Part shown: piece by piece, positions 23,162 through 64,000 of the stretch
Position numbering within the stretch: the first letter of the stretch is position 1
Layout: each line of letters begins with the position of its first letter
Assembly (NCBI RefSeq): GCF_003019035.1
Contig: NZ_CP027447.1
Direction: 5' to 3' (one strand)
Origin: Escherichia coli
GTDB taxonomy: Bacteria; Pseudomonadota; Gammaproteobacteria; Enterobacterales; Enterobacteriaceae
Length of the DNA: 64,000 nucleotides
The notes under the pieces: generated by a model
What the model was told of the DNA's origin: nothing
What the model saw: only the letters and a program-made list of their open reading frames with translations
Database searches by the model: none
Made by a program: the position numbers and the translations under genes

Positions 23162-23230
23162 CTGATTTTTATAAGTAAAATGGCGTATTCAATAACCAAT
23201 TGAGACGCCATTTTTTTATTTGCGATTTAT

Positions 23231-24142: not shown

Positions 24143-24262
24143 TATGAATATCCAGAGACTCATAGTTTCGAGCCAAGGATGGCTCTGGTGTTCGTAATCT
24201 CGCTTCATCCATTCGAAATTCATTTGTACTGTAGCCCTGTAGACACAACAGAGGACATACAC

Positions 24263-26561: not shown

Positions 26562-26975
26562 ATGCAAAATACAAAGCTTAATATTATGGAGCGATATTTG
26601 ATACTGCTCGATAAGTTTGTCGATAAAATTATCGAATCAGGCGTTTCTGAACAACAATTGATCGAGAAGTCGTATCTGTTCTGTGCAGGGTATTATATTA
26701 AGTACCAGCAAGAAATTGAAAGGCTGACATTCTCAAATAAAGATGTCGTTTTAACATTTCTATTATTTTCATACTACAATTATATTAATGAGTTAGATAA
26801 TAATTTAATTAACAAAGTAAGGATGAGGAGAACATGTTCATTACTTATTAATTTCATTGTCGATAATGGTAGTCAGACAGAAAAAATTTATGTGCAGGAA
26901 AAAAAGAAGTACAAATCTTATACATTGAAAAGGGATTTATCAGTAAAGAATAAAAGGAAAAAATATGGTTTATAA
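26562..26975 (+). CDS. Hypothetical protein (137 aa)
   Basis: AT-rich ORF with plausible RBS (AAGGATGG) a few bases upstream; no recognisable motif. Confidence 0.4.
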   Translation: MQNTKLNIMERYLILLDKFVDKIIESGVSEQQLIEKSYLFCAGYYIKYQQEIERLTFSNKDVVLTFLLFSYYNYINELDNNLINKVRMRRTCSLLINFIVDNGSQTEKIYVQEKKKYKSYTLKRDLSVKNKRKKYGL

Positions 26976-27292
26976 CAATATGAAAACTTCCGTGATTTGA
27001 ATTTAAGGCTTTCACCTTATTATCCGATGCCTACATGAAAAATGCCAAAACTTACATAGCTTGCTCCAGCACAAGCAATGTAGAAATCAACTTTATCTCC
27101 TTTAAACATAATCGTGATTGTTTCGTTGCTTCCATGGAGTACCGATGGCAGGGATTTATATCGTTGTCTGGGACTGACCGTTATGCTTATTGTATAAACA
27201 TTTATCTTTGCTGCCAGAAGGGCTCAGACTGTAAGATTCGATAAGGATGCTAACATATTCTATTCGCGATTTTACCGTTCAAGATTTTAATT

Positions 27293-27964
27293 TTAAAATT
27301 GTATTGACTTAATAACGCTTCTGAGTGCGTTATCAAATCTTTGGCTTCTTCTCTTTATCCATTTAATGCAGGTAAAGCTTCCAAGTCGTGAGGCAAAATA
27401 GGTTAACCACATATATTTGTGTTCGTCAAAAACATATCCAGATTTAAACCCCCATGGCAATACAAAAAATGAAATAATCGCAATGCAACAAAGCAAGATA
27501 AATATGGTGGAAAAAAATTTAGGAACAGGCATCGCCCTATAATAAAATGCCATCGAAGCGTTAGGGAAAAGTACGGTGAGAAACGCAGGGATAATAATTG
27601 TCTTTCTATTTAAGTTGACTTCGTATTCACCCGTGGTTGTATTAACAATGAGAGCATCTTTGAAGGCACTAAATGAACCATTAACTCTATACTGGCGAAG
27701 CTCGTATTTACAAATTTTGTGAGATTTTATAAATGTGATACCAAAGGCTGGAATCTGTGTCTCATCCCCCGTATCGGTTTTAACCCAAACTTGGTCAGTA
27801 ATTGGGAGGGGACTGATGACAGTAGCAGAAAAGGTCTCAACGAACATGTAGGTTTCGCCGAACAACTCGAATTTAGGTGTTGTCATCTCAGCTTTCGTTT
27901 CCCGGCGACTTAACGGGTCAATGTTAACTTCTTTATTGCAGTGTTTCGTGATGGAGCTGCTCAT
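27293..27964 (-). CDS. Hypothetical protein with C-terminal transmembrane segments (223 aa)
   Basis: N-terminal soluble region followed by hydrophobic stretches (IIIPAFLTVLFPNASMAFYY, FSTIFILLCCIAIISFFVL). Confidence 0.45.
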   Translation of the reverse strand: MSSSITKHCNKEVNIDPLSRRETKAEMTTPKFELFGETYMFVETFSATVISPLPITDQVWVKTDTGDETQIPAFGITFIKSHKICKYELRQYRVNGSFSAFKDALIVNTTTGEYEVNLNRKTIIIPAFLTVLFPNASMAFYYRAMPVPKFFSTIFILLCCIAIISFFVLPWGFKSGYVFDEHKYMWLTYFASRLGSFTCIKWIKRRSQRFDNALRSVIKSIQF

Positions 27965-28249
27965 ACAAATTCCTATGTTTAAGATGAAATCAGATTCGAT
28001 GATGTATGAAATCGTTCAGTTCCAAAGATGGAATAATGTCTGCCATTTCCAGTACCGGTGCATTAATGAAAAGGATATAGACTAGTAAAATCATAATGTT
28101 AGCATTACAGTGTGAACTAACATTTTGACTAGGTTTACAGGAAACGCAAATCACTTGTACCGATCGATTAACAAATAATGATAGATTATAGCTATCAGTC
28201 TATCTTTATCGATCGGTATAAACGATCAATTTTAGGGGTATGTTGCTTA

Positions 28250-29518
28250 CTAAAATCTACATGTAAGGTGGTAATGTTGCCTTGGCGGCACTAAATTGCC
28301 GTCAAGTAAAGGCTCCACAAAAGTGTTTTTGGGATTGATGGGATGGATTTCTATCTTCATCGCTTCAGTGATGACTTGGTGCTTTGCGGGGCGTCTAAGA
28401 ATTGGGATTTTAAGTTGTCTCAGCAGACGATAAATCGTATCAAGGTAAGGGATGGTTTCCATCCATCTGAATGCTGAGACCTCGTAGCTTTGATTAGGCA
28501 TCTCTTTTACGGCTATAGTAGCTATCGCTTTCTTACTCCCTGCTAAAGCTTCCGAGGAACACTTCTCTTCTACATAAGCGACAGCACTTTCGTCTTTACC
28601 TGCATGCCTATCAATAATAAAAGCTTCGAAGGAGTTTTTAACGTTTTCCTTTAATATTTCGTTTGGATTCGCTTTAGTGATAGTTGCTTTTAGGTCAAAC
28701 AGAAAGCCGTTATCGCGTTCTGGTCTATAATCGAGTTTACCCTGCAAGGTCGACCATGAATAACACTTAGCTAATTGCGAAGCTTTGAAAGCAATCCCGG
28801 CGTATTCGAATGAGAAACCATTCATTTTACCTGTAGATGTGATATTGGGTAATGCATTAATATTTTGTTCAAAAAGCTGTTGGACAAACTCAGTGGTCGA
28901 TACTCTTTTAGAAACTAACGTCTCTAAAGCGTTCTGGATGATGGTTTTTGGGCATTGTTCACCTGTCCTTTTCTCTTGCATCGCTTCATTTCGTGTTTTT
29001 TTTCGTTTTAGTTTAGGGCAGGGCAATGCTAAAGAGGTTTTTGTTTTAGGGCCTTTGGTTCTTAGTAGCGAATAGTCGTGTTCAAGCTGTTGGATAATGC
29101 GTGTACTAATCAGGTTTTCATTTTTTCCGAGATAGAGTTTGCCTGTAATACGGTCTATGCGGCTGGCGATAATGTGGATGTGTTGACCGACCGCATCGTC
29201 ATGCAACACGTAGCATCTGAGATGCGTTTCCGAGAAGCCGATGCGCTTCATATAGTCATCAGCTATAGCGGACCACTGAGCATCGGTTAGCACTTCGTCC
29301 TTTGGTAAACGAAGCGAATTGTGCCAAACAGGTTTATCCACATCAGGGCGAAGCGTTTTTGTTAGATTGAATTCAGTGATCAGATCTTTCGCTGCACACC
29401 CATCCATATTTCCCCCGATCACGACAGGAGCTACCCTATGATGAGAATCTGGTTTTAACGTATAGAGGACGATCCCGATAAAATTCTTACCTCTGCGGAT
29501 CTTTTGCATTCCCTTCAT
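28250..29518 (-). CDS. Mobilization relaxase (MobA/MobL-type)
   Basis: Relaxase three-histidine motif HDDAVGQHIHIIASRID (HxDx4HxH); probable start MKGMQKIRRG at 29518 (track ORF extends to 29569); overlaps the upstream mobC. Confidence 0.75.
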   Translation of the reverse strand: MKGMQKIRRGKNFIGIVLYTLKPDSHHRVAPVVIGGNMDGCAAKDLITEFNLTKTLRPDVDKPVWHNSLRLPKDEVLTDAQWSAIADDYMKRIGFSETHLRCYVLHDDAVGQHIHIIASRIDRITGKLYLGKNENLISTRIIQQLEHDYSLLRTKGPKTKTSLALPCPKLKRKKTRNEAMQEKRTGEQCPKTIIQNALETLVSKRVSTTEFVQQLFEQNINALPNITSTGKMNGFSFEYAGIAFKASQLAKCYSWSTLQGKLDYRPERDNGFLFDLKATITKANPNEILKENVKNSFEAFIIDRHAGKDESAVAYVEEKCSSEALAGSKKAIATIAVKEMPNQSYEVSAFRWMETIPYLDTIYRLLRQLKIPILRRPAKHQVITEAMKIEIHPINPKNTFVEPLLDGNLVPPRQHYHLTCRF

Positions 29519-29924
29519 CGGAGTCTCCCCACAAGTCGGCGGTGATGAGATGTAAGCGAAGATCGGCAATTTGTCGCTTCACTGCAAATAGTTCCGTTTT
29601 TGTCAGGTGGCTTCCGGTACTTTTGTTATCAAGGTGGGCAACAATTTTATTTAGTTTCTGTGAAAGGTCAGCTAAAGATCTCCATGCTTTTATATTAATA
29701 GCTGGAACAACACCAGGAAGCGCATTAAGAAAAGATAAACGAAGCCATTCCCCTTTGCGATGCTGGCCACGTTTTTCATTTAGAAGCGTCAGCTCTTTAT
29801 CATTAAGCCTGACACTGACGCAATGATTACGAATTTGCTTGCGTGAAAGCTTCGTTTCGCAAGAGCTTCTACAGGAAGCTCGCGTATTTATAATAGTCTT
29901 ATTGAAATTATTATTACTGACCAT
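29487..29924 (-). CDS. MobC-like relaxosome accessory protein
   Basis: 145-aa basic protein with a MobC-like LSQKLNKIVAHLDNK motif (similar to the NLNQiARhlN signature), immediately upstream of and overlapping the relaxase gene. Confidence 0.6.
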   Translation of the reverse strand: MVSNNNFNKTIINTRASCRSSCETKLSRKQIRNHCVSVRLNDKELTLLNEKRGQHRKGEWLRLSFLNALPGVVPAINIKAWRSLADLSQKLNKIVAHLDNKSTGSHLTKTELFAVKRQIADLRLHLITADLWGDSDEGNAKDPQR

Positions 29925-30053
29925 ATTAACCTCTTTTTAAATATATAAATAAAAATATTATTTTATTTATATAATAAAATAGTCAGATGTCAATATACAT
30001 GTATTATATTGATTTTAACTTTTTTCAACTGAAAGGCGAAAAAACAAGGGGAA

Positions 30054-30085
30054 ACTCAATGAAGCAGCGTAGCGCTTCGTTGAGT
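30054..30085. promoter_or_regulatory. Candidate oriT inverted repeat upstream of mobC
   Basis: ACTCAATGAAGC...GCTTCGTTGAGT near-perfect inverted repeat (11/12 arms) in the AT-rich leader of the mobC-mobA operon. Confidence 0.4.
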
Positions 30086-30148
30086 TAGCCCTTGCTTTAA
30101 CAATATTGACCAAAATCTCTTTTTAATATAAAATGAATCCTAAGAGGG

Positions 30149-30724
30149 ATGGAGGTATACATGCTCAATGATAATAAAATTCGCACTGCATTAATAAATT
30201 TTTTACTGGCTAAAAAACCAGCGCCAGAAAGGATTATTGAAGAATTGCATATCGAGAACGGAAGAGCAATAGCTGATGTCGTAGCAGCATATAGTTATTT
30301 GCATTGCTACGAGATTAAAGGAGAGACTGATTCAATTGGAAGAATCCTTACTCAAGCTAATTATTATAATACTTCTTTCAACAAAATTACACTTGTAACT
30401 ACAAAAAATCATTTAACATGGGCATTAAAGCGTTCCCCATCCTTCTGGGGAATCATATTAGTAGAATTAAAAGATAATAACATTACTTTCAAATATATAA
30501 GGGGGGCTAAAGATAATATTTTCTTCAGAAAAGAAAATGCTTTCATGATGTTATGGAAGGACGAAATGTTGAAGGTAGCAAATGAAGCCTCTGTACCAGT
30601 TAAAAGATCACACACGAGGATGGAAATAGCCGAAATGCTTAGTAGTTCGCTTAAGAAAAGTGATGCTTTGCAAACTATACAAAGCATCATATCTAATCGA
30701 CTAAAATTAAGGGATGCAGTGTAA
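30149..30724 (+). CDS. Hypothetical protein with PD-(D/E)xK nuclease-like signature (191 aa)
   Basis: Motif ..ENGRAIADVVAAYSYLHCYEIKGE.. (hydrophobic-D ... E-I-K) matches the PD-(D/E)xK core pattern; convergent with and overlapping the 3' end of the three-gene operon. Confidence 0.5.
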   Translation: MEVYMLNDNKIRTALINFLLAKKPAPERIIEELHIENGRAIADVVAAYSYLHCYEIKGETDSIGRILTQANYYNTSFNKITLVTTKNHLTWALKRSPSFWGIILVELKDNNITFKYIRGAKDNIFFRKENAFMMLWKDEMLKVANEASVPVKRSHTRMEIAEMLSSSLKKSDALQTIQSIISNRLKLRDAV

Positions 30725-31822
30725 AACAAACTTAATATGTGAAGTCAGCATGGCTTTAATCCAGGATGAGGGATTACCTGCTTTATCTGGTTTTTTAGGC
30801 GAATAACTACTTCTATCATAAACATATTGTTCCCCATATGAGAATGTAGTTGCCCTGAAGAATTTTTGGTCATGGATTATTGTGGCAATATCATAATATT
30901 GACCATTTCCTCTCTCATCATTCTGGAAAGATCCACCTCTAACACAAAACATATTATTCTTATACGTATAAAATACTTTTGGTGCGGAAACTTTTCTAAA
31001 TAGCTTCGGATCTAAATCTATATCAGAATAATCAGGGCTAACAATTCCATAATCCCCGTATATAATATTACCAATTTTCTTTTCGTTAACTAATGTGTCC
31101 CAAATTTTCCACTCCGCTCTCGTGAACGATTTTCTTTGATAGGTTTCAAGTAATGAGGAAATATTAGCCGGTATCGAAGAGGCTGATATAATGCACTTAT
31201 CAAAGTGAAAGTCTTTATTTACATTTAGAATAAAGTATTCAGCCATGTCAGTTAGTCGCTTTATGTCAGTTGGCTGAATGTATCGTAGATCTATAATTAA
31301 GTGCAATTGTTCTACTTTCAGATTTCTAATGATTACCATCATCTTCAAGAGATGCATTTTTGTTATTTTATAGCTCTCAATATCTTCAGCAACTAACCTT
31401 ATGGCTAATTTCCCTCCGTTAATTGATAGGCTATCGTAAACACTTTTATTGTGTTTCTCTAATCGGTTGATACCGATCACAGGAATATATAAGTAATCAC
31501 GAAAAAGAGATAGTATATATTCGTATTGCTCCACTCCATCAATTAATATTTCATCATCCAGGTCATAATTATCTATGTAAAATTCCATGTTTTTAAATAA
31601 AGCTTTATTATCCAATCTCTTTTTGAAAGAATGAGCTTTATTCAATACATTTTCCATTGTTTGATTATTTGATTCTCTTGGTATATCGAAGAATGGAGTG
31701 ATTTGTGTGAAGATTGTAGCATCTTTTTTGTAAAGCTCTTCGAGGGCTTGAGTTTCGTTGCTTTTTGCTTTTAAAAATGGGATATATTTACTCATTGAAA
31801 CCAAGCTCCCTTCTGACATCAA
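30707..31822 (-). CDS. Hypothetical protein (371 aa), third gene of the ImmA-containing operon
   Basis: Long AT-rich ORF whose start overlaps the stop of the ImmA/IrrE gene; no recognisable catalytic motif. Confidence 0.6.
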   Translation of the reverse strand: MMSEGSLVSMSKYIPFLKAKSNETQALEELYKKDATIFTQITPFFDIPRESNNQTMENVLNKAHSFKKRLDNKALFKNMEFYIDNYDLDDEILIDGVEQYEYILSLFRDYLYIPVIGINRLEKHNKSVYDSLSINGGKLAIRLVAEDIESYKITKMHLLKMMVIIRNLKVEQLHLIIDLRYIQPTDIKRLTDMAEYFILNVNKDFHFDKCIISASSIPANISSLLETYQRKSFTRAEWKIWDTLVNEKKIGNIIYGDYGIVSPDYSDIDLDPKLFRKVSAPKVFYTYKNNMFCVRGGSFQNDERGNGQYYDIATIIHDQKFFRATTFSYGEQYVYDRSSYSPKKPDKAGNPSSWIKAMLTSHIKFVLHCIP

Positions 31823-32717
31823 TTGAATTAACTAAACTTGAGAAGATAACATAATTTTTGTGTTTATTTCTTACCGCACCAGCAGCGATTATTGGGTGTA
31901 TATTAAATCTTTCGCAGACAGATATTAGACTATCAGGTTCATTAAATGTCCGAAAGACAGCTCTATTTGCTTCTCTGGGTATCAGACTATCAGCTGCGGC
32001 TCTGTTAGCCTCAATCTCTACGTCTGTTTCTGTGTCAATGTCTAAATCATCGAGGATTGGCGTATCTAATTTATCATAGTGCAGAGCAATGTGGGATAAT
32101 TCATGCATTAATGTAAACCAAAAGTAATCATATCTCGAATATCTTAAACTTAGACCTATGACTGGTGTTTTATTTGGTAAACAAAAGGTACAGCCATCTA
32201 ACTTCATACCTTTGAATGATTTTTCAATTATTAGAATAATACCATATTCTTCTTTAAGGATTCTTGAAATATAATGAATAGATTGTACATCCCTGCTCAA
32301 ACTTGCAATTATTCCGAGGTTTTCAAAATCCAGATCTGTGAAGACCTTTGTATTTCCTTTTAAATAGGTGTTTAATGACTTTTTTTCTATTAATGATAAC
32401 CATAAATTTATGAGTTCAGAATTAGCATCATCTCTTTTTCTAAATAGTTTATTTTTGTTAAATGTTAAATTTTTTGCTACATCAAGTAGGAATTGATTTT
32501 CGTTTTCCATTTCTGGTTTACGGGAAATAATATCTTTTATTTTTTTGCTGTTTTTTATCTTTTGGAAATTTAGTAAAATTTCCAAATCAGACTCACTAAA
32601 CTGATTTGATACAAAGAAATCTTTCTCATGCGGCATTTGAAATTCCTCCGAGAGTTGATGCGACAACCTGTGATGCCTCATAAAATCGGAGATTTTCTTT
32701 TTCATGGTCGACGCCAA
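31788..32717 (-). CDS. ImmA/IrrE-family Zn-metallopeptidase (COG2856-type) with ~190-aa N-terminal extension
   Basis: HExxH motif WFTLMHELSHIALH followed by the third zinc-ligand region EIEANRAAADSLIP, characteristic of ImmA/IrrE peptidases. Confidence 0.8.
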   Translation of the reverse strand: MASTMKKKISDFMRHHRLSHQLSEEFQMPHEKDFFVSNQFSESDLEILLNFQKIKNSKKIKDIISRKPEMENENQFLLDVAKNLTFNKNKLFRKRDDANSELINLWLSLIEKKSLNTYLKGNTKVFTDLDFENLGIIASLSRDVQSIHYISRILKEEYGIILIIEKSFKGMKLDGCTFCLPNKTPVIGLSLRYSRYDYFWFTLMHELSHIALHYDKLDTPILDDLDIDTETDVEIEANRAAADSLIPREANRAVFRTFNEPDSLISVCERFNIHPIIAAGAVRNKHKNYVIFSSLVNSIDVRRELGFNE

Positions 32718-33273
32718 AATCAGTCATGCCAAGATGGTTATAGAAACCCTCTGCACTTGGGAGTGCATGTAGGCAAAAACCAGGTCTATACCCCCAGTTT
32801 GAACAGGCATAATTAATTGTATGTTGGATAAGCTCTTTGCCTACTCCACTATATTTAGGGGTAAAGTTAGGACGAGGACGATTCCAGTATGCTGTTGCAA
32901 TATAATCCACGTAGAAAATTTTATTATTATCAAATCGACTTTCTTTTGGATGGTAAAGAACACAAACACCTTGAACTGCGTCGTTTATTTGCAGAAAAAA
33001 CCACTGATAATCATCACCATTACATTGCAAAAGCTTGCGGCACCAGTCCCAATGCCAATCAGAAAGGCTGTTATCTGCCAGAATTTTCCTTGCTAACTCG
33101 TTATCAGTGGCCATACCGGGGTTAGCAGTAATTAGAGCTGACAATAAATCAGCACGATAGGCACCCCATTTGCTCTGCAAGTCAACCACTTTAGCATAGT
33201 CAATCCCTACGTGAATTTGGTAATCAACTGATTTTCCTGAACAATTTTCAACGACCATAAGCTCCCTTTCCAT
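32626..33273 (-). CDS. GNAT-fold acetyltransferase-like protein (215 aa), first gene of the operon
   Basis: GNAT-like motifs ..FYVDYIATAY..RP.....GVGKELIQ.. and ..SAEGFYNHLGMTDFG..; its stop overlaps the start region of the ImmA gene. Confidence 0.5.
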   Translation of the reverse strand: MERELMVVENCSGKSVDYQIHVGIDYAKVVDLQSKWGAYRADLLSALITANPGMATDNELARKILADNSLSDWHWDWCRKLLQCNGDDYQWFFLQINDAVQGVCVLYHPKESRFDNNKIFYVDYIATAYWNRPRPNFTPKYSGVGKELIQHTINYACSNWGYRPGFCLHALPSAEGFYNHLGMTDFGVDHEKENLRFYEASQVVASTLGGISNAA

Positions 33274-33505
33274 TGTGTCGGCTCATTTTGACTAATAATA
33301 CAACTTTATAGTCTTTAAGAATGCTCTGCTGGTCAAATTTCTTATTTGATCTATAGAAGGCTATGTTTTGAAGCTGGTTGTTAATCTGGTTATGATGTGG
33401 TCATATTAGAATTGGTAAATCAAACCAATTTTGTTGGTATGAATGATGGTATCTTCGCTAATGTAATATGCTTTATTCACTAAAAATCATAAGGATAGTT
33501 GCGAT

Positions 33506-33529
33506 GTTCGAGTCCGGCATCCGCACCAC
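33506..33529 (+). repeat. Degenerate direct repeat of the leuX 3' end (candidate att site at the distal island boundary)
   Basis: GTTCGAGTCCGGCATCCGCACCAC versus leuX GTTCGAGTCCGGCCTTCGGCACCA: 13 identical bases followed by 8 of 11 matching with one gap. Confidence 0.5.
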
Positions 33530-34203
33530 ACTGTATGCAAATCGAGTCGCTCAAGAGCGGCTTTTTTTGTGTCTGAAATCACCCATATCCGTGCAGTATA
33601 TAGGCCTGCCAGAAAAGCAATTCAGTATTCTTCATTTTGTAGTCGATGGTCCCAAGTTTGCTCTGGCTGGAAGCTGCATCGTCCACATTACGTGGGCAGG
33701 GTGGTTTCGCTATGCTACTTGAACGTTTTGACCATGTGGCTCAGGTAGCATATCAAAAGACGTCATTTTGTCTCCACGCCCACCTTGGTGAACATTCAAT
33801 AAATAGTTTCGGTCGAGAGCAGTTATGTAGGGCTAGCAGACGAAATGCGCAGACATCTTGTTGAAGACAATTTTACTGACCACCTGAGAACGCTATTCTA
33901 CCGAATAATATTTATTATCTTGGTGAATAATGATGATTACCTGTGTAACTATGGTTTTATGCTGATGGGACCGGCAGTACAATTTCTGTAGTGTACTCGC
34001 AATTTCAGGTCTCTGGCGTTTATTCTGGTGCAAAGGATGTATGTGATGAAAACTTTGCTACCATGCCATTAAATGCGACCAATATCGGATTATCCATCAG
34101 TTGCTTGTTGTAGATTTCATTGGTTATAAAAATGCAAGGTGTAAAAGATGAAATTTATAATTATTAGTTAAGTGGCTAGTTTTATAGTAATTTAGACAAT
34201 AGG

Positions 34204-36252
34204 ATGTATGGAAAAATGGAAAAAGTTTATGATACCACTAGAATTAGTAATCTTGCTAACGACCCGAAACAGTTTTGTTCTTTTTTTTGTGAGTACATAA
34301 AAAGAGATGATATTAGTATAGATATCGCCTTGGATGTGCTGAGAATATCTTCCATCTATTATAATAGATTTTCAGTTCAGACTGAAGTTGAGTATAACAA
34401 TACATTCAAAAAATGTATTAATGAGCTAGTAAACTCATTTCCTGATAACATTGAACTAATCTCTGAGTTCGAGAGTCAATGTAAAATTATGCATGATATA
34501 AATAATTCTTTCTTTGCGGCTACAAAATGTGCTGGTATTTGGCGTAAAAATACAAAAAAATCACATGCATTAATACTTAATCTCATCATGTTTTGTGAGA
34601 TGTTTTTATCATTATTATCATCCTTGGTTGTGGTCAATGATCCTAAAAAAATGAAGAGGATTTTTCCATTGTTTATCGTTTCTGAAAATATTAATATTCA
34701 TGCTGAACCTGATATCGAATATTTTCGAGTTATCGATAGGGCATTTGATGAGGTAGCCAATTACACCGGAAGAATATTTTCTTATTTACGGACTCATGGG
34801 CCATTGAAACTAACTTCTTGTGTGAATAAACAAACCTTGCTTTCAATGGGAGGGTACCTTAATGAGTGGAATGTTTTTGACTCATTAAGCAGAGTAAGAG
34901 ACTTTTTCAGACTAAGTAGTGCAGTATTTACAAAATTGGATAATAACATTTACTCTCTTGAGGTTGATAGTTTTTGTTTATACCGAGATTATGAGATTGC
35001 AAGAAATAGACTAATGATGAGAGCGTCACATCTATATAGCGAAGTTCATGAATTTAGTAACAAACATTTTCATCTAAATAGTTGGGTAAAGGATCATATG
35101 CCATCTTACTTAAATTCTGATGGCGTTTTTAGCTCATTTCATCTAAGCGAGTTGGAAAATATGTCTCCTGATGACCTTCATGAAGAATATGGGAATATAT
35201 CATTATTTAATTGGGTGCACGCTTATCAATGTTTAGTCGAGTTATCTAAAGAAGAAATGAGCAAAAGATTTTCATCGACAAAACCTATACCCCTACAGTT
35301 GGATCGCTGGCTGATCATAAAAAGCCGTGAGAGTTGGTTATCATTCTTTCAACGTAAGGGGATTGCAGTAGATGCAGCAAAAAAACTGATAGATTATTTT
35401 ACCTTCAATTCAAAATCACATGATCTTAATGATTGCCCATTTATTCCCTGTATGGACGGTTTATGCTTAATGCCTGCATTAATAGCAAATAGCTCAGTGA
35501 CTCGCTCTCTAATGTCATTATTTGGTTCCAAAAAAATTTCTCAAGCAAGTAAAGGGCGATTTCATGAGCAACAATTTATAAAACAAGTTCGTGATGCGGG
35601 GATTAAAGCTTCTCCAATTGATGCTCATGCTAATTATCAGTGCGATTGCGTGATTCTCCTGGATGATTGTTTGATTTTTACAGAACTAAAATCAAATGGT
35701 CAACCAATATATTATGGTAAGTACTATCAGCAAGTGTGTAACATCGTTGGAGATAGCTCATTAATACATGATCATAATAATAAATTTATGCGTTCTTATT
35801 TTCAACAAATAAATCGAATTTCTGAACATTATCTTAATCATCTTAATGTGATCATTAAAGAATTCGAACTACCATCAACATGGCAACCCAAAGGTGTGTA
35901 TAAGCTTATTGTTACTACAACTATGCTCGGTGGGAAATATCATGTGGATGATACATATGTAGCGGACAAATATGCATTATCTAGTTTTTTTCAACGAATA
36001 CCTGGAGTGATATATCAAACAAATGAAAATGGAAAAATGGCGAAAAATATCATTGATGGGTTTGAGTGTTGCGAAGGGGAAATCACTATCGATAAGTTTA
36101 TAGATTATCTTTCCTCTTTGCCCAGTATTAATGCTGTACGTAAAAATATAAAAAAATTAACTTATAGTGTTCGATTTAATGAAAAATTAGTCCATCACCC
36201 TTATTATGATTCTTGGGCTTTTGGCCCATATATTCGTAAGGGAAATGATTAG
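34204..36252 (+). CDS. Large hypothetical protein (682 aa), AT-rich, possible C-terminal PD-(D/E)xK-like motif
   Basis: Uninterrupted 2 kb ORF with strong terminator downstream; C-terminal stretch CDCVILLDDCLIFTELKS has a D...E.K pattern; otherwise unrecognised. Confidence 0.6.
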   Translation: MYGKMEKVYDTTRISNLANDPKQFCSFFCEYIKRDDISIDIALDVLRISSIYYNRFSVQTEVEYNNTFKKCINELVNSFPDNIELISEFESQCKIMHDINNSFFAATKCAGIWRKNTKKSHALILNLIMFCEMFLSLLSSLVVVNDPKKMKRIFPLFIVSENINIHAEPDIEYFRVIDRAFDEVANYTGRIFSYLRTHGPLKLTSCVNKQTLLSMGGYLNEWNVFDSLSRVRDFFRLSSAVFTKLDNNIYSLEVDSFCLYRDYEIARNRLMMRASHLYSEVHEFSNKHFHLNSWVKDHMPSYLNSDGVFSSFHLSELENMSPDDLHEEYGNISLFNWVHAYQCLVELSKEEMSKRFSSTKPIPLQLDRWLIIKSRESWLSFFQRKGIAVDAAKKLIDYFTFNSKSHDLNDCPFIPCMDGLCLMPALIANSSVTRSLMSLFGSKKISQASKGRFHEQQFIKQVRDAGIKASPIDAHANYQCDCVILLDDCLIFTELKSNGQPIYYGKYYQQVCNIVGDSSLIHDHNNKFMRSYFQQINRISEHYLNHLNVIIKEFELPSTWQPKGVYKLIVTTTMLGGKYHVDDTYVADKYALSSFFQRIPGVIYQTNENGKMAKNIIDGFECCEGEITIDKFIDYLSSLPSINAVRKNIKKLTYSVRFNEKLVHHPYYDSWAFGPYIRKGND

Positions 36253-36275
36253 AGCAATTTATTATATAGTCCATG

Positions 36276-36330
36276 TTATTCACTGATTATATTATTGATA
36301 ATATAATCAGTGAATAACTCTAATTTTTTT
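36276..36330 (+). terminator. Rho-independent terminator after the 682-aa gene
   Basis: 17-bp perfect inverted repeat TTATTCACTGATTATAT / ATATAATCAGTGAATAA (36276-36317) followed by a T7 run at 36324-36330. Confidence 0.7.
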
Positions 36331-36650
36331 AATGTTGGGGTTTAGCCTGAAGTTGAAATTGGTACTACGGAACGGTATGATCATATCGCATCAAAATATC
36401 AAGGTAGTGATGATTTTCTACGCACCGATCCAGAAATGTGGATTTTATCATCACCATAAGCAATGGCAGCGACAACACCATCAATTTCTATATCAAAGGT
36501 GGTAAAATAAATTAGAAAATTGTTTATTTAATCCATTAGCGATAAGTTTTATTGTTATTTAGCCGAGATATATTCCATTGAAAAAAGTAAATTGGCACTG
36601 ATATTATATCAAATGGGAATAATCCTTTTGTAAATAAGCTGAGGAATGTG

Positions 36651-36830
36651 TTAATTCACATCCAGCGCCTTATAAACCGCATCAACCGGTTCTGAGTAAA
36701 AACTTACCTGAAACTTGGTAAACAACTCTGCCGGAACTGTTGGAATATCCATAGCCGAGGATATCGGCAACAGAACTCGTTTTGCGCCGCTATCGAAGGC
36801 GAGTTGTAAACTAGCGGCAAGATCCTGCAC
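36651..36830 (-). pseudogene. Orphan 3' gene fragment (about 59 codons), probable remnant of a deleted gene
   Basis: Minus-strand frame translating ..VQDLAASLQLAFDSGAKRVLLPISSAMDIPTVPAELFTKFQVSFYSEPVDAVYKALDVN-stop with normal GC content but no upstream continuation; adjacent plus-strand fragments are also present. Confidence 0.3.
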
Positions 36831-36874
36831 TGATTATGTCAGCAATATTGAACATACTGCGATAGTTATCAACC

Positions 36875-37747
36875 TCACCCCCTAAAAACCTCTTTCCGAT
36901 GCCACTCCACAAATCCCTCATAAGGGTAATTTTTACGTACCTGCGGCAACGCAATAGTTTTCCCGTCAAAATCCCAGAATAGTTTCTCAACGATCCCTCC
37001 GCCGTTTACCGCATCTGATACCAGTACCCGCATATTTTCATCCAGGCCAATCGATCCTTTATCAAAGGCTTTATGGTGTATTGCACAAAGCGCCAGACCA
37101 TTAGGAATTTCACAAGGACCGCCGTGCTGTTTCCATTTTATATGCGCCGCTTCCAGCGCGACGGTGGTGTCGTCGTGGCGCATATTAAAGCCACATATCG
37201 CGCACTGGTAGTTATAAGCGCGTAATACATTTTTGCGAAATAACGGGTCGCGCTGTTTACGGATTTGCTGGAGATCAAAACCCAGTTCGTCAGCAATTTC
37301 TTCCTGAATACTCTCGGTGAAGTGCGCTTCGAGTATCTGTTGCGCCAGAGTATTGATGAGTTTTTTATTGCCAGTTACCAGGGCGTAGTGCTGTTCATCG
37401 AAACCGCCTGCAACGTGGTATTCAGTCAGTTCCTTCACTGGTGGTTGTCGGCTGCTCCCTGCTGTTGAGCAAAGCCCGGCATTGTGTAATTGCCAGAATC
37501 CGTCGCCTTGTAATCGCCAGAACGGCATATCAGGTCGGTACTGTGAACGCTGTGGCCCAAAACGTTCCAGTAAATTGTGCAGAGGTTCGTAGATTTCCGA
37601 TCCATAATCGAAAAGGCGCGGATGCCCATTCAGGTATCCCGCTAATACGTATAGCAGTAACAATGGTTTATGCGGCGCGCGCTGTTCACCCTTGTGCCAG
37701 ATTTTTATATTGGCAATTGCCTGCTGTAGCGATTTACTGGAAGCCAT
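36875..37747 (-). CDS. HNH-motif endonuclease with N-terminal DNA-recognition domain (candidate modification-dependent restriction enzyme)
   Basis: C-terminal His-Me finger CAICGF...HIKWKQHGGPCEIPNGLALCAIHHKAFD; probable start MASSKS at 37747 (track ORF extends to 37804). Confidence 0.7.
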   Translation of the reverse strand: MASSKSLQQAIANIKIWHKGEQRAPHKPLLLLYVLAGYLNGHPRLFDYGSEIYEPLHNLLERFGPQRSQYRPDMPFWRLQGDGFWQLHNAGLCSTAGSSRQPPVKELTEYHVAGGFDEQHYALVTGNKKLINTLAQQILEAHFTESIQEEIADELGFDLQQIRKQRDPLFRKNVLRAYNYQCAICGFNMRHDDTTVALEAAHIKWKQHGGPCEIPNGLALCAIHHKAFDKGSIGLDENMRVLVSDAVNGGGIVEKLFWDFDGKTIALPQVRKNYPYEGFVEWHRKEVFRG

Positions 37748-37958
37748 TGATATCCCTGGCAGTGAAATAATTGCGATCATGCTCGCAAATTTTCTGCTGT
37801 TCAAGCCTGCAAGTGAAGATATATTACCTTGATCTCATTTGTTTTTTTGCTGCCTGTGTACCCTAATTGCCATGCGATGTTGCACCGACGCAAACCACCG
37901 TTTACGCCGGAGGAGTTAAAAGCGCTGATGGATGCAAATAAATCAAATTAATGAACGC

Positions 37959-58433: not shown

Positions 58434-58826
58434 GTGCGCAAAATGATGCGCCAATCACTTCAGGCTGTTTTACCTGAAATTTCAGGCAATAAAACGTCAT
58501 CGCTGCGTAAATCGGTATGCAGCGATCTCCTCACACTTTTTAATTCTCCTCATTCGGCATTACCGTCATTACTTGTTTCAGGCATGCCCGAGTGGCAAGT
58601 GCATAACCAGAGCGACAAACATCTTCAGAGCTGGTATTGCCGTCAGCTGCGTTCTGCACTGTTATTTCATGAGCCACGGATTGCGGCGTTGCAGGTCAAT
58701 TTGAAAGAAGCGTACTGCCACACGCTGGCGATCAGCCTTGAGATAATGCTGTACCACGACGATGAACCGCTAACGTTTGATCTGGTCTGGCAGAAGGGGA
58801 GTTGGCATCGCACGATGCCGCAGTAA
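58434..58826 (+). CDS. iraD: Anti-adaptor protein IraD (RssB inhibitor stabilising RpoS)
   Basis: [25 protein letters not shown]...; track ORF starts at GTG 58434, first ATG at 58443 preceded by AGGAG. Confidence 0.85.
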
Positions 58827-58835
58827 ATGACGGGA

Positions 58836-58864
58836 AACGCGATACGCGCAAGACGTATCGCGTT
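58836..58864. terminator. Hairpin between convergent iraD and the dhaM-like gene (possible bidirectional terminator)
   Basis: AACGCGATACG-cgcaaga-CGTATCGCGTT: perfect 11-bp stem in the 47-bp gap; no strong T-run. Confidence 0.45.
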
Positions 58865-58873
58865 AGGTCACAA

Positions 58874-61255
58874 TTAGTGGGAGGTTCTGATTGCTGCTTT
58901 CAAGGCCGGAAGCCGGGACGGACTGGCACTGAGCTTATCAATCCCCATGGTGAGCAGTCGTGCTGTTTGCTGGGTATCTCCAGCCATTTCGCCGCACATA
59001 CTGACCGGAATTTCATTATTACGTCCGGCCTGACACACCATAGCAATAGCGTTAATCACCGCGTCATTACGATAATCGACCAGTTCCGCGACGGTGCTAT
59101 TTCCTCTGTCTGCCGCCATAATATATTGCGTCAGATCGTTGGTGCCGATGGAAAAGAAATCGACTTCACTGGCTAATTTTTCTGCAATCATGACTGCAGC
59201 AGGAACCTCAATCATAATTCCCAGCGCCGGAAGATTTTCTGCAGTAAGTCCCAGCAGTTTTGCCTGCGTTTGTATCAGCGTTTTGACGGCGTTGACCTCC
59301 TCGAGCGTTGAAACCATCGGCAGCATAATTTGCAGCGTTGGGTATTCTTTCCCGGCCCGGAGAAGTGCGCGTAATTGCGGAATAAATATTTGCGGATGCG
59401 CCAGGCACAACCGGATACCGCGAAGTCCCAGGAACGGGTTGTCCTCTGCGGGTAAAGGGTACGAAGGTAATGGCTTGTCACCGCCAATATCCAGAGTGCG
59501 GATGGTGACTGGTTTATCGCCAAAAGCCTGAGCAACAGAACAATACACGCGAAACTGCTCTTCTTCATCGGGTAATGTTGCAGACTCATGGAATAAAAAC
59601 TCTGTGCGCAGTAAACCCACGCCCTCAGCCCCGTGAGATAGCGCAGCCTCAATATCTTGCAGGTCACCAATATTCGCCAGCACGCTGATTTTTCGCCCAC
59701 CTTGCGTGACAGCGGGCAGCATGGCATCAGCTAACTGACGATCCCTTTGTTGCCGCCATGCTTCGGCGCGTTGCAGTAAATCCAGGCGGGTGACCTCATC
59801 CGGCTGTAGCCACAAACGGCCTGTTTCACCATCAAGAATGACTGTGTCGTTATCGCGGACGTTTTGCGGGGTAATAGCTGCCTTCACAATGGCAGGAATA
59901 CCCATTGCTCTGGCAAGGATCGCTGTATGTGAAGTTGTTCCGCCATTATGAAGACAAATGCCAAGAATGTGTGCTTTATTCAGGCTGGTTATCTGTGATG
60001 GCAACAGATCGTTGGCTAACAAAATGCAGGGCGCGGTAGTAATAAAGTGTTGTTCACTTACCCCGCAAAGCTGGTTCAGTACCTGACGTGTAAGGTCACG
60101 GATATCTGCCTCGCGTTCACGTAAATACAGTGTTTCCGCCTGACAATATTGCTCTGCTAATGCCTGCATGACTTCTAACCATGCGAATTCCGCCTGTTTG
60201 CCCTTTGCCAGACGTTGCTGTAATTGCCGGTTAATCTTTGGATCTTCAAGCATCATTTTATGGGCGGCAAAAATATCGCCTTCAGGGCCTGCCGCTTTAT
60301 CGGCAAGTTCACAAACAACAATGTCGATAGCAGACTCGATTCGCGACAGCTCTTCTTGCGGAGAATCGACGGTGCGCTGCGTAATTTCTGGTCGTTCGCA
60401 GGTAAACCATTTAACAGGACCAATAGCGATACCATTTTGTACTGACAAGCCTGATATTGCGCCATCAACAGGGGCGCTGACCACCGGCGTTTCCGTTAGC
60501 GGAATCTCTGAAGAAGCGAGCAGGTGAGCTTCACCAAAATGATTTTTCGCCAACGTTTCAATTGCCTTGAGAGCGTCACTGGCATCGGTGCCTTCGGCCT
60601 GGAAGATGATTTCATCGCCACAGCGGACGCCCAGCATTGCCAGTTCGTTGAGACTGCGGGTGCTGGCGCGTTTATCGCCTTTGATGACGATAATGTTTGC
60701 CGAAAATTGTGCGGATACTTTCAGGATGCTGGCTGCCGGACGAGCATGAATGCCGTGGGGATTACGTATCGTCCAGCAAAAAGTTTGCCATTCATCGCAA
60801 TGATTGATTGGTGATATTGCTGGAATAACCTCGCCTGCAGTTGAGGATGGCGTGAGTTGCTGCTGTTTAGCACACAGCGCAAGATCCACTTCAGCGATAA
60901 TCTCCGTCACCGAAAGCCCCGCTGCGGCAGACGTTACCGCTGACATGGCACCTTCCACTACAGGGGCGGCGAGCAGATAAATTGCACTTCTTTGCTCTTC
61001 AGAAAGCAGCTCCAGCGCCATCTCGGTACTAAGCAGCGCACTGCCCATATCCATGAGTACCAGAACGCCATCCGGTGACCAGACCGATTCAATCGCAGAC
61101 ATAATGGCAATAGCATCAGTGCCAATCGGATTTTGCGGATCATCAATACCTGCAGCAATGGCCAGAGGAACGTCCCCTCCAGACATCTGTAGTGCTAATT
61201 CCTCAACCCCCTGGGCGAGACGTAGACTATGAGAAACAATAACAATGGCAACCAT
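58874..61255 (-). CDS. DhaM-like PTS multiphosphoryl transfer protein: EIIA(Man-type)-HPr-complete Enzyme I fusion
   Basis: N-terminal MVAIVIVSHS (DhaM EIIA-type), HPr-like HGIHARPAA, Enzyme I phospho-His region GGTTSHTAILARAMGIPAIV and PEP-binding domain motifs IGTNDLTQY and CGEMAGD. Confidence 0.85.
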   Translation of the reverse strand: MVAIVIVSHSLRLAQGVEELALQMSGGDVPLAIAAGIDDPQNPIGTDAIAIMSAIESVWSPDGVLVLMDMGSALLSTEMALELLSEEQRSAIYLLAAPVVEGAMSAVTSAAAGLSVTEIIAEVDLALCAKQQQLTPSSTAGEVIPAISPINHCDEWQTFCWTIRNPHGIHARPAASILKVSAQFSANIIVIKGDKRASTRSLNELAMLGVRCGDEIIFQAEGTDASDALKAIETLAKNHFGEAHLLASSEIPLTETPVVSAPVDGAISGLSVQNGIAIGPVKWFTCERPEITQRTVDSPQEELSRIESAIDIVVCELADKAAGPEGDIFAAHKMMLEDPKINRQLQQRLAKGKQAEFAWLEVMQALAEQYCQAETLYLREREADIRDLTRQVLNQLCGVSEQHFITTAPCILLANDLLPSQITSLNKAHILGICLHNGGTTSHTAILARAMGIPAIVKAAITPQNVRDNDTVILDGETGRLWLQPDEVTRLDLLQRAEAWRQQRDRQLADAMLPAVTQGGRKISVLANIGDLQDIEAALSHGAEGVGLLRTEFLFHESATLPDEEEQFRVYCSVAQAFGDKPVTIRTLDIGGDKPLPSYPLPAEDNPFLGLRGIRLCLAHPQIFIPQLRALLRAGKEYPTLQIMLPMVSTLEEVNAVKTLIQTQAKLLGLTAENLPALGIMIEVPAAVMIAEKLASEVDFFSIGTNDLTQYIMAADRGNSTVAELVDYRNDAVINAIAMVCQAGRNNEIPVSMCGEMAGDTQQTARLLTMGIDKLSASPSRLPALKAAIRTSH

Positions 61256-61258
61256 AAT

Positions 61259-61891
61259 TTATCCCGCGAATCCTTCCTGCATAGCCTTAATCATCAGCCA
61301 GGAGGAGGTCGCGCCTGGATCCTGATGGCCCACACTGCGAGCGCCGAGATAACTGGCACGTCCTTTTTTCGCCTGCATATTGATGGTGTTATCGACGGCT
61401 GTTGCCGCATCTTGCACCATCGTATTCAGCAGAAGGGAAGGCGACATTCCGGCTTGCAGGTTCTTTTTGGCTTCGTGGAGAACTGGAACCCAGACATCAC
61501 ACAGAGTTTTATCCCTTTGTTCTGCTTTTCCTCGTGCGATAACGCCTGCAATCCCTTCTTCCAGACACGCCAGCCACTCTTCCAGAGTTAATTCTGTTCT
61601 GGCTCCCACTGCCGCAGAAGCGCGAATAAATAATGTGCCGTAAAGAGGACCACTGGCACCGCCAACGCTGGAAAGTAGTTTCATGCCAGTATTTTTAAGA
61701 ATATTGCCAATATGCTGACGTTCAATGTCGGGCAACGTCGCTTTCACTGCACTGAAACCACGATTCATATTGAGGCCGTGGTCGGCATCACCAATATCTC
61801 TGTCAAGTGCGGTTAGAAAATCTTGTTGTTCAGTGAGATGTGCAGCACAACTCTCCAGCCAGGCAATAACATGTTTGTTTTGAATTTTCAT
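61259..61891 (-). CDS. Dihydroxyacetone kinase subunit L-like (ADP-binding)
   Basis: 210-aa DhaL-fold protein with DxxxGDxDxG-like motif (DRDIGDADHGLNM). Confidence 0.85.
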   Translation of the reverse strand: MKIQNKHVIAWLESCAAHLTEQQDFLTALDRDIGDADHGLNMNRGFSAVKATLPDIERQHIGNILKNTGMKLLSSVGGASGPLYGTLFIRASAAVGARTELTLEEWLACLEEGIAGVIARGKAEQRDKTLCDVWVPVLHEAKKNLQAGMSPSLLLNTMVQDAATAVDNTINMQAKKGRASYLGARSVGHQDPGATSSWLMIKAMQEGFAG

Positions 61892-61903
61892 ATAATGTCC
61901 TTA

Positions 61904-62968
61904 TTAACATCCCCAACGAAGCGCTGGCGTATTGACCGGGGCATCCCAAAGTTGCAAAAACTCTGGGGTACATTTCAGCAGGCTGATGGAAAATCCGGCC
62001 ATATCTAATGATGTACAATAATTACCGACCAACTGGCGGCTAATTTTAATTCCCTGGCGCTGTGCGGCGCACATAAATACCCTGGCTACACCATATAACT
62101 CTGATTCAGGCGTGCTGCCAAGTCCGTTAATTAACACAATATATTCGGCATTTTGATCGAATGACTCATTCATTGATGATGCGTCAATCCATCCCCCCGC
62201 ATGGCGATCCCAATGGCGTAATGTGCGTCGCCAGGGGGTATTATCCAGTAATTGCGCTATCACGCTGTCGATTAAAGTGTTCAGATCTTGCAAAGTGCGG
62301 CGTTCAATGCCGGGTTCACCGTGGATCCCGACACCAAATTCGATTTCATTATCAGCCAGTTCAAATGAGGGTTTTCCCGCGGCGGGAACCGTACAGGCTG
62401 ACAGTGCGATGCCAAAAGAACGGGTGGCATTGTTAACATTTTTGCCAAGTTGCTCGCACTGCCCCAGGTTATATCCCTGAAGTGCAGCCGCACCGACAAT
62501 CTTTTCAACAAAAACTGTACCCGCAACACCGCGACGTCCGGCTGTATACAGGCTATCTTTTACCGCTACATCATCATCAATAATGACGGTCCCAACGGCG
62601 ATGCCTTCTTCGTGTAACATCTCGACTGCCGTTTCGAAATTCAGAATATCGCCTGTGTAATTTTTGATGAAAAACAGAACGCCAGAACCATTATCAACCG
62701 CTTTGGCACATTCGATCATTTGATCTGGCGTGGGCGATGTGAAGATTTCACCAGGACATGCACCGGTTAACATTCCCATACCGACAAAACCTGCATGCAG
62801 TGGTTCATGGCCTGAGCCGCCGCCTGAAATCAGCGCCACTGCATTATCGGTTTGTTTGCACCACACATATCGGGGCGCGTAATTTGCCTGCAGGTGTGGC
62901 CAGGTGGCGATGAGTCCTTCCATTTGTTCTGTGACAACAGAATCAATCTGGTTAATTAATTTCTTCAT
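61904..62968 (-). CDS. Dihydroxyacetone kinase subunit K-like (substrate-binding)
   Basis: MKKLINQIDSVV... with the conserved DhaK motifs GGGSGHEP and substrate-binding His region (GVGIHGEPG). Confidence 0.85.
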   Translation of the reverse strand: MKKLINQIDSVVTEQMEGLIATWPHLQANYAPRYVWCKQTDNAVALISGGGSGHEPLHAGFVGMGMLTGACPGEIFTSPTPDQMIECAKAVDNGSGVLFFIKNYTGDILNFETAVEMLHEEGIAVGTVIIDDDVAVKDSLYTAGRRGVAGTVFVEKIVGAAALQGYNLGQCEQLGKNVNNATRSFGIALSACTVPAAGKPSFELADNEIEFGVGIHGEPGIERRTLQDLNTLIDSVIAQLLDNTPWRRTLRHWDRHAGGWIDASSMNESFDQNAEYIVLINGLGSTPESELYGVARVFMCAAQRQGIKISRQLVGNYCTSLDMAGFSISLLKCTPEFLQLWDAPVNTPALRWGC

Positions 62969-63293
62969 AGTCATTCCTGTTCTGATAAATTACGTAAATC
63001 GCGCTAAATATGTTTGCGAGATTAATTCTCCAGCCGCAATAAAACAAATCGCACGATAATAAGATTCATAATGAAACAGTTAATTCATGGTGTTGTTTCA
63101 AAATGAAAAGGGACCAGTATGGATATTGATATATTGTGATTAAGGCATGAAAAGTGTTTTTTATTATCATCTGCAGATGATGTTTTTTACAGCGCGATCA
63201 TAAAACATAATTTTTCGCGAATGAAATGTTTGCCGCCACTGGATGCAACGAGTAGGTTAACAGTGAAGCAAAACAAGTTACGCGAGGAATGAT

Positions 63294-64000
63294 ATGGATA
63301 AGATTATTATAAGTCCGGCTAAATATATCCAGGGAAATGGTTCTCTGGATAATATTGCTACATATGCGGCGAGTTTGGGAACAGAACCATTAATTATTGC
63401 AGATGAATTTGTGACCGGTCTGGTTGGTGACAGAGTAAGCCAGAGCTTTGCAAGAGAAAACATTATTGCGGATCTTGATGTTTTTTGCGGTGAATGCTCG
63501 CAAAATGAAATTTCTCGAATTCGTGAGAAATTTAATCAGCGTAAATATAATGTCGTTATTGGTATTGGCGGCGGTAAAACGTTGGATACGGCAAAAGCCG
63601 TAGCGTATTACCAAAAAATTCCGGTGGTGGTGGTGCCGACAATTGCTTCCACAGATGCGCCAACCAGTTCTCTGGCAGTAATTTACACCCCGGAAGGCCA
63701 GTTTAGCGAATATCTGTTTTTCCCGAAAAACCCGGATATGGTGATTATGGATACTGGCGTCATTTCAGCCGCGCCAGTGCGTCTGCTGGTGGCCGGTATG
63801 GGAGATGCATTGTCAACCTGGTTTGAGGCGAGAGCCAATCAGGCGTCAGGAAAAGCCACAATGGCAGGTGGGGCGTCGACACTGGCGGCACTGGCTATTG
63901 CCCGACTCTGTTATACCACGCTACTGGAAGATGGCTATAAGGCAAAAGTCGCGGTTGAACAAGGTGTTAGCACCAAAGCGGTAGAGAATATTATCGAAGC
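63294..64000 (+). CDS. Glycerol dehydrogenase-like (iron-containing ADH family), 5' part; runs off the window end
   Basis: MDKIIISPAKYIQGNGSLDNIA... with GGGKTLDTAKA NAD-binding motif; RBS GAGGAA upstream; no stop within the window. Confidence 0.8.
   Translation, partial: MDKIIISPAKYIQGNGSLDNIATYAASLGTEPLIIADEFVTGLVGDRVSQSFARENIIADLDVFCGECSQNEISRIREKFNQRKYNVVIGIGGGKTLDTAKAVAYYQKIPVVVVPTIASTDAPTSSLAVIYTPEGQFSEYLFFPKNPDMVIMDTGVISAAPVRLLVAGMGDALSTWFEARANQASGKATMAGGASTLAALAIARLCYTTLLEDGYKAKVAVEQGVSTKAVENIIE

Follow-up and report, generated by a model that had tools for sequence, protein, structure and literature searches.

A probable PEP-dependent dihydroxyacetone kinase operon with a DhaM-HPr-Enzyme I fusion at the left end of the GimA island of Escherichia coli

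In this study, a 64,000-nucleotide stretch of Escherichia coli DNA (RefSeq assembly GCF_003019035.1, contig NZ_CP027447.1; hereafter the window) was analysed to establish what is encoded between iraD and the window end. Genes resembling dhaK, dhaL and dhaM lie there beside a divergent glycerol dehydrogenase homologue, and the 793-amino-acid DhaM-like product carries an Enzyme I of the phosphotransferase system (PTS). An initial annotation had placed the three open reading frames (ORFs) after iraD; they were found at those positions, and its reading of them holds at the level of sequence. We conclude that the region is where the GimA island of extraintestinal pathogenic E. coli begins on its left side, with the GimA1 operon (dhaK-dhaL-pptE/ptnI) and the start of GimA2 (cglD), and that GimA1 probably encodes a phosphoenolpyruvate (PEP)-dependent dihydroxyacetone kinase. 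The initial annotation missed that this is the long-known GimA island; the GimA1 and GimA2 operons have already been described, and the DhaM-HPr-Enzyme I fusion is ordinary. The DhaM-like gene and the domains of its product are as follows.

58874..61255, minus strand: pptE/ptnI ('ptsP' in RefSeq), 2,382 bp, encoding a 793-amino-acid multiphosphoryl transfer protein, assigned by Pfam, NCBIfam and PDB matches
60902..61246, minus strand: EIIA-Man-type DhaM domain, amino acids 4-118, with phospho-histidine H9, assigned by Pfam EIIA-man and alignment
60545..60781, minus strand: HPr domain, amino acids 159-237, with phospho-histidine H170 and R172, assigned by Pfam PTS-HPr and alignment
59819..60451, minus strand: N-terminal part of Enzyme I (HPr-binding and mobile phospho-histidine domains), amino acids 269-479, with H443, assigned by Pfam and alignment
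58883..59725, minus strand: C-terminal PEP-binding domain of Enzyme I, amino acids 511-791, assigned by Pfam and without counterpart in K-12 DhaM

The Enzyme I part of the protein is complete. The motifs IGTNDLTQY and CGEMAGD, from which the initial annotation had read a full C-terminal domain, are present, and Pfam agrees with PEP-utilisers_N at residues 269-381, PEP-utilizers at 408-479 and PEP-utilizers_C at 511-791 (E = 7e-100). PDB sequence matches to full-length Enzyme I (e.g. 2hwg) spanned residues 267-792 from end to end. The protein scored above the cut-offs of both NCBIfam models TIGR01417 (PTS_I_fam; 462 bits, cut-off 342) and TIGR02364 (dha_pts domain; 120 bits, cut-off 98). Catalytic residues were assessed by alignment to the K-12 counterparts from NC_000913.3. 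All three phospho-histidines are kept (H9, H170 and H443, the last equivalent to PtsI H189), as are all eight PEP/Mg-site and catalytic residues of Enzyme I, namely R550, R586, K594, E683, N706, D707, R717 and C754, which correspond in this order to PtsI R296, R332, K340, E431, N454, D455, R465 and C502. The catalytic cysteine, whose loss would have spoken against the proposal, is in place as C754, and the marks of an Enzyme I (three domains, H189 and C502 equivalents, PEP/Mg site) are all found in this protein. Its Enzyme I part is 37% identical to PtsI over 527 residues, and the whole protein differs from its UTI89 counterpart at 7 residues. The name 'ptsP' given by RefSeq (PGAP) does not reflect the EIIA-Man/HPr/Enzyme I fusion or the DhaM role; ptsP is the name of the nitrogen-PTS Enzyme I with a GAF domain. 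The JGI label for homologues is 'PEP-protein phosphotransferase/dihydroxyacetone kinase phosphotransfer subunit'.

The DhaKLM system of E. coli K-12 was reportedly recognised by Gutknecht et al. in 2001 as a PEP-dependent dihydroxyacetone kinase. GimA1 resembles it in the three-gene operon dhaK-dhaL-dhaM, in the order of EIIA-Man, HPr and Enzyme I N-domain, in the three histidines and in paired boxes upstream of dhaK. The description of K-12 DhaM in the initial annotation, as EIIA-HPr with only the N-terminal part of Enzyme I, proved accurate: the K-12 protein (472 amino acids) aligns to residues 1-480 only, ends after the Enzyme I N-terminal part and requires PtsI and HPr, whereas the GimA protein adds a 280-residue PEP-binding domain. 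Identity between the two is 38% over the shared part and 59% over the EIIA/DhaM domain alone. In a domain-wise comparison bearing on a possible origin of K-12 DhaM by truncation of the full-length form, the Enzyme I N-domain of K-12 DhaM was 32% identical to the GimA protein and 31% identical to PtsI, at about the same distance from both. The GimA protein has in common with PtsI the full three-part Enzyme I module with all catalytic residues, and with PtsA/FrwA (32% identity) the fusion of Enzyme I to HPr and an EIIA domain; K-12 ptsA clusters with the dihydroxyacetone-related genes gldA and fsaB. Unlike PtsA/FrwA, the GimA protein has the order EIIA-HPr-Enzyme I, and its EIIA is of the mannose/DhaM type.

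The remaining genes of the kinase operon and its divergent neighbour are listed below.

61259..61891, minus strand: dhaL paralogue (ADP-binding subunit), 210 amino acids, TIGR02365 with 246 bits (cut-off 138)
61904..62968, minus strand: dhaK paralogue (substrate-binding subunit), 354 amino acids, TIGR02363 with 461 bits (cut-off 406)
63294..64000, plus strand: 5' part of cglD, the first gene of GimA2 (235 of 360 codons), divergent from dhaK and running off the window

DhaL is 54% identical to K-12 DhaL and keeps D30, D35 and D37 (Mg-ADP-binding) and H38, and DhaK is 59% identical to K-12 DhaK and keeps H56, D109 and H218 in identical local motifs. The longest dhaK ORF (61904..62974, minus strand) has 356 codons; the real start is probably at 62968 (MKKLINQ), because AGGA lies 6 nt upstream and the RefSeq start agrees. 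The three minus-strand genes are spaced by 3 and 12 nt and therefore form a tight operon dhaK-dhaL-pptE. The divergent gene had been proposed to encode a glycerol dehydrogenase, and this assignment stands. The part of cglD in the window is 100% identical over 235 amino acids to the SMS-3-5 protein, which shows 57% identity to K-12 GldA and scores 558 bits on NF006941; the SMS-3-5 ORF has 1083 bp, equal to the published length of cglD. Glycerol dehydrogenase activity of the cglD product is reported in a passage of PMC7264371 that cites Zhang 2009.

The identity of the island was established from its junctions, its gene order and its published description.

58807..64000, no strand assigned: left 5.2 kb of the GimA island, delimited by the end of K-12 homology and by identity to SMS-3-5 and UTI89; the island continues past the window end

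At window position 58806, within the 3' end of iraD, homology to K-12 (uxuR-yjiC-iraD) breaks off; in SMS-3-5, it sets in again at the stop codon of hypT. The size of GimA from the junctions mapped in SMS-3-5 (~20.3 kb) equals the published size, which supports the assignment. In K-12, iraD is directly followed by hypT, in line with the expectation that K-12 carries a different gene at this position. Over this part of the window, identity is 99.7% to SMS-3-5 and 97.9% to the GimA region of UTI89. Judging from SMS-3-5, the right junction would lie beyond the window, at the hypT stop. The gene order in both SMS-3-5 and UTI89 is iraD, then ptsP-dhaL-dhaK, then gldh-MFS-FAD (flavin adenine dinucleotide) oxidoreductase, then a BCCT transporter gene, continuing with glxK-glxR-hyi-gcl, dhaR-ibeA-nhaC and hypT, where glxK and glxR denote glycerate kinase and tartronate semialdehyde reductase. 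CglE, the FAD-dependent oxidoreductase of GimA2 (SMS-3-5 segment L001, 19331-20695), and IbeA (segment L002, 2544-3914) are paralogues with 51% identity over 452 amino acids, and their genes each adjoin a transporter gene (MFS for cglE; NhaC-type IbeT for ibeA).

GimA has been described as a 20.3-kb cluster from yjiD (iraD) to yjiE (hypT), with the four operons ptnIPKC, cglDTEC, gcxKRCI and ibeRAT, of which GimA1 opens with pptE (= ptnI, 2,382 bp) (Homeier et al. 2010, PMC2878320). Coordinates of 'PAI-iraD (GimA)' in RS218, UTI89, APEC O1, LF82 and other strains are given in a review (PMC7545054); those for UTI89 agree with the UTI89 locus fetched here, and UTI89 was used as the published-coordinate reference in place of RS218. 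The island was first described by Huang et al. (Funct Integr Genomics 1:312, 2001), and its genes were reportedly annotated at that time as PTS Enzyme I, dihydroxyacetone kinase and glycerol dehydrogenase. The region shares with GimA of E. coli K1 RS218 (AF289032), whose GimA1 operon includes pptE and pdaK, the chromosomal site, the gene order, the 2,382-bp first gene and the 1083-bp cglD. Unlike the full island of RS218 and UTI89, the part in the window comprises just the first 5.2 kb, and the best match of its allele (99.7%) is the copy shared by SMS-3-5 and 16 other genomes rather than that of UTI89 (ST95). The invasion-associated gene ibeA, present in SMS-3-5 and UTI89, would lie ~14 kb past the window end.

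The synteny comparison downstream of iraD that the initial annotation had called for was performed by megablast against 5,426 complete E. coli genomes. The whole 5.6-kb left-end stretch was present in 243 of them, with a best match of 99.7% (SMS-3-5 among others). The last 342 bp of pptE (58874-59215) occurred in 511 genomes, and ~268 genomes hold this 342-bp 'GimA remnant' only, without the rest of the island; the remnant was reported by Homeier et al. (PMC2878320). RefSeq annotates it as 'putative PEP-binding protein'. Canonical dhaM was found in 5,322 of the 5,426 genomes (98% with dhaKLM), so that a GimA-positive strain will normally possess two dihydroxyacetone kinase systems. The cassette lies at the same site in E. 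albertii and E. marmotae, with uxuAB-uxuR-(yjiC)-iraD on one side and the genes for an iron-containing alcohol dehydrogenase (Fe-ADH), an MFS transporter and an FAD oxidoreductase on the other, and the protein identities are 90% and 92%, respectively. Homeier et al. regarded GimA as an old part of the chromosome that was repeatedly lost rather than as a recent import (PMC2878320), and the common site in these two species fits that view.

The complete Enzyme I is unusual relative to K-12 only. A word-indexed search found full-length homologues of 790-830 amino acids with all five Pfam domains in Serratia, Citrobacter, [Enterobacter] lignolyticus, many Vibrio and Photobacterium species, Moritella, Pseudovibrio and Rhodobacteraceae. 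Representatives of 50%-identity clusters were then searched exhaustively using residues 1-482, the part common to K-12 DhaM, as the query, and the best 150 were analysed. Among these, 102 had at least 760 amino acids, all with the C-terminal domain, and 98 kept all eight catalytic residues of Enzyme I; 31 fell in the K-12-like range of 440-560 amino acids. By this count, the form with a complete Enzyme I is the common one and the majority form among DhaM relatives, with K-12 as the exception. V. parahaemolyticus and Pseudovibrio have a Dak1-Dak2-(EIIA-Man/HPr/Enzyme I) operon beside an Fe-ADH gene. The cassettes of V. parahaemolyticus, Photobacterium, Serratia, Citrobacter and Pseudovibrio share the three genes with GimA1, and their five-domain DhaM proteins are 49-58% identical to the GimA protein; the Vibrio cassette also has a DhaR-type regulator next to it, along with two perfect boxes. 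Unlike GimA, these loci from Vibrio to Pseudovibrio lack the gcx and ibe operons and are ordinary dha loci of the chromosome. No biochemical characterisation of these cassettes was found in the searchable literature. The [Enterobacter] lignolyticus cluster has GimA-like neighbours, keeping the genes for MFS and BCCT transporters, an FAD oxidoreductase and the glycerate pathway, including glycerate kinase.

Regulation of the operon was approached through a conserved element in the dhaK/cglD divergent promoter region.

63063..63109, no strand assigned: putative pair of DhaR-type operator boxes, GATTCATAATGAAAC (63063-63077) and GTTTCAAAATGAAAA (63095-63109)

The boxes are near-palindromic, lie 32 bp apart and are located 95-141 bp upstream of the dhaK start. 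Pairs were defined by the pattern GTTTCA-N3-TGAAAC occurring twice with 31-33 bp spacing. This was the sole pair in the 64-kb window, and 45 kb of SMS-3-5 held exactly three pairs, all at GimA promoters: dhaK/cglD, gcl/ibeR (segment L001, 27359-27406) and ibeR/ibeA (segment L002, 2261-2307). No pair arose in 200 composition-preserving shuffles of the 45 kb. Equivalent pairs were present upstream of dhaK in K-12 (dhaK/dhaR), E. albertii, E. marmotae, [Enterobacter] lignolyticus and V. parahaemolyticus. Single boxes with at most one mismatch numbered 3 against 0.07 expected; with two mismatches allowed, 4 were found in the window against 3.8 expected, showing no enrichment, and significance is limited to one-mismatch boxes and pairs. 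The regulator gene of GimA lies 11 kb off, whereas K-12 dhaR adjoins dhaK. Its product IbeR scored 986 bits on the DhaR equivalog NF008485 (cut-off 551) and is 33% identical to K-12 DhaR; the GAFTGA motif, a sign of sigma-54 dependence, is absent from both. The locus therefore shows the features of a DhaR regulon, which are paired boxes upstream of dhaK and a DhaR-family regulator. We infer that the boxes may represent the DhaR operator; a literature search for a published DhaR operator sequence found none. These data suggest the hypothesis that IbeR, as a DhaR homologue, could control GimA via the box pairs. K-12 DhaR is said, following Baechler et al. in 2005, to be switched by DhaK and DhaL. 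The literature labels IbeR an 'RpoS-like stationary-phase regulator', and mutants of ibeR have stress and virulence phenotypes in a paper that makes no mention of DhaR (PMC4359115).

The accepted DhaKLM scheme runs from PEP through Enzyme I, HPr, DhaM and DhaL-ADP to the substrate on DhaK (PMC3863723). Read against this scheme, the GimA1 products would most likely act as a PEP-dependent dihydroxyacetone kinase that carries a complete phosphorelay of its own on a single polypeptide. The phosphoryl group of PEP would be transferred to H443 of the Enzyme I module, with the chemistry performed by the C-terminal PEP-binding domain and C754; it would then pass in turn to H170 (fused HPr domain), H9 (EIIA-Man/DhaM domain) and adenosine diphosphate (ADP) on DhaL. 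DhaL-ADP would finally phosphorylate dihydroxyacetone, which H218 of DhaK would hold as a hemiaminal, to yield dihydroxyacetone phosphate. CglD would convert glycerol to dihydroxyacetone, thereby feeding the kinase. The sequence data establish which island this is, the domain architecture, the catalytic residues and the synteny, whereas we infer this order of the relay, its autonomy from PtsI and HPr, and dihydroxyacetone as the substrate. Independence from PtsI and HPr is plausible, and an autonomous relay would be the most economical reading because all relay stations lie on one chain. Conservation of the PEP site across ~100 divergent clusters argues that the activity is under selection.

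Several observations weigh against this reading. The K-12-type DhaM equivalog NF008478 gave 423 bits against a cut-off of 520, with a match covering only residues 1-483 of 793; the model has 473 positions and ends after the Enzyme I N-terminal part. The searchable literature yielded no experimental work on the GimA kinase or another DhaM with a full Enzyme I, and on pptE/ptnI/pdaK nothing beyond Homeier 2010. The canonical dhaKLM carried by 98% of genomes makes the function of the GimA kinase at least partly redundant. A simple glycerol route also leaves the rest of the island unexplained, namely the MFS and BCCT transporters (three transporters in all), two FAD oxidoreductase paralogues and the glyoxylate-to-glycerate pathway, and a different or additional substrate is thus conceivable. 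In the [Enterobacter] lignolyticus cluster, a 61-amino-acid ORF stands alone at the position of the glycerol dehydrogenase gene (segment L009, 7776-7961).

These last two points are what speaks for a kinase that is not specific to dihydroxyacetone: the transporters, the oxidoreductase paralogues and the glyoxylate-to-glycerate genes are superfluous for a glycerol route, and [Enterobacter] lignolyticus keeps the neighbours with the short ORF in place of the dehydrogenase. Another small carbonyl (D-glyceraldehyde, erythrulose or similar), derived from an imported substrate via CglE/IbeA, would then be phosphorylated, and the other product would enter the gcl-hyi-glxR-glxK branch. We consider this unlikely, given that DhaK is 59% identical to K-12 DhaK, scores above the equivalog cut-off and retains H56, D109 and H218, and that an Fe-ADH glycerol dehydrogenase homologue adjoins the cassette in E. 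coli, E. albertii, E. marmotae, Vibrio and Pseudovibrio; the activity reported for CglD, as relayed in PMC7264371, points the same way. It is similarly improbable that the fused Enzyme I provides no autonomous entry, so that phosphoryl groups would come from the general PTS (phosphorylated HPr to the Enzyme I N-domain, in the K-12 manner) or the protein would mainly feed or drain general HPr by cross-talk. K-12 DhaM does work with the N-terminal part of Enzyme I only and depends on Enzyme I and HPr (PMC3863723), and E. coli has other Enzyme I-containing fusions of unclear role, such as PtsA. However, this protein and 98 of the 150 best representatives retain the eight PEP-site and catalytic residues, which argues that PEP-dependent autophosphorylation is under selection. 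An alphaproteobacterium, Pseudovibrio, has the cassette as well, and alphaproteobacteria commonly have no general sugar PTS.

A regulatory explanation is compatible with the kinase reading. The operon might serve mainly to supply DhaK and DhaL as ligand-dependent partners of IbeR, which would set the expression of ibeA and GimA according to dihydroxyacetone, with catabolism secondary. The assignment of IbeR to the DhaR equivalog by NCBIfam, the restriction of box pairs within 45 kb to three GimA promoters and the ibeR mutant phenotypes (PMC4359115) agree with this possibility, but IbeR is only 33% identical to K-12 DhaR, and the canonical DhaR, having the same box consensus, could be the putative binder instead; on balance such a role seems doubtful. 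Returning to the autonomous kinase, we tentatively advance, at clearly less than an even chance, a broader proposal: the whole of GimA, including the invasion-associated ibeA, could be one dihydroxyacetone-responsive regulon, in which IbeR, as a DhaR orthologue, would bind the three box pairs and be switched by the DhaK and DhaL of the island, and the complete Enzyme I would free both sensing and catabolism from the state of the general sugar PTS.

Further features at the island boundary and elsewhere in the window were recorded.

58836..58864, no strand assigned: hairpin with an 11-bp stem and a 7-nt loop, between the convergent stops of iraD (58826) and pptE (58874)

The hairpin has the sequence AACGCGATACG-CGCAAGA-CGTATCGCGTT, and RNA folding of window positions 58821-58880 gave -23.4 kcal/mol. 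It is likely to be a bidirectional transcription stop; a scan for T-tract terminators did not detect it. In a consensus promoter and terminator scan of 58700-63400, the number of sites was not above chance. The last ~20 nt of iraD (58807-58826, ~6-7 codons) are not homologous between GimA-positive strains and K-12, in which iraD overlaps hypT. The G+C content was 44.7% for window positions 1-58433 and 48.5% for the GimA part within the window, and the RS218 chromosome has 50.8% (PMC2878320); the value for 1-58433 is below the E. coli average, for which the RS218 figure of 50.8% is taken. A tRNA-Leu(CAA) gene, leuX, lies at 21640-21724; next come a gene with an integrase domain (21914-23161) and one that is relaxase-like (28250-29569), and positions 21640-37900 look like a strain-specific leuX island. 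Positions 1-36858 show no collinearity with SMS-3-5; in that strain, the region upstream of nanM/nanC and fim contains defence genes, namely Zorya, Wadjet and large helicase/methylase genes.

GimA has been on record since 2001, and the discovery value of this locus is accordingly small. Its value is practical: the RefSeq name 'ptsP' hides the role of the protein as a DhaM subunit, and the conserved DhaR-type box pairs offer a concrete and cheap hypothesis for the control of the virulence-associated ibeRAT operon. Independence from PtsI and the hypothesis linking the box pairs to IbeR are the sole questions here that merit bench work. If the broader proposal were true, IbeR would be recast as a metabolite sensor, and a locus of meningitis and avian virulence would be tied to host glycerol or dihydroxyacetone.

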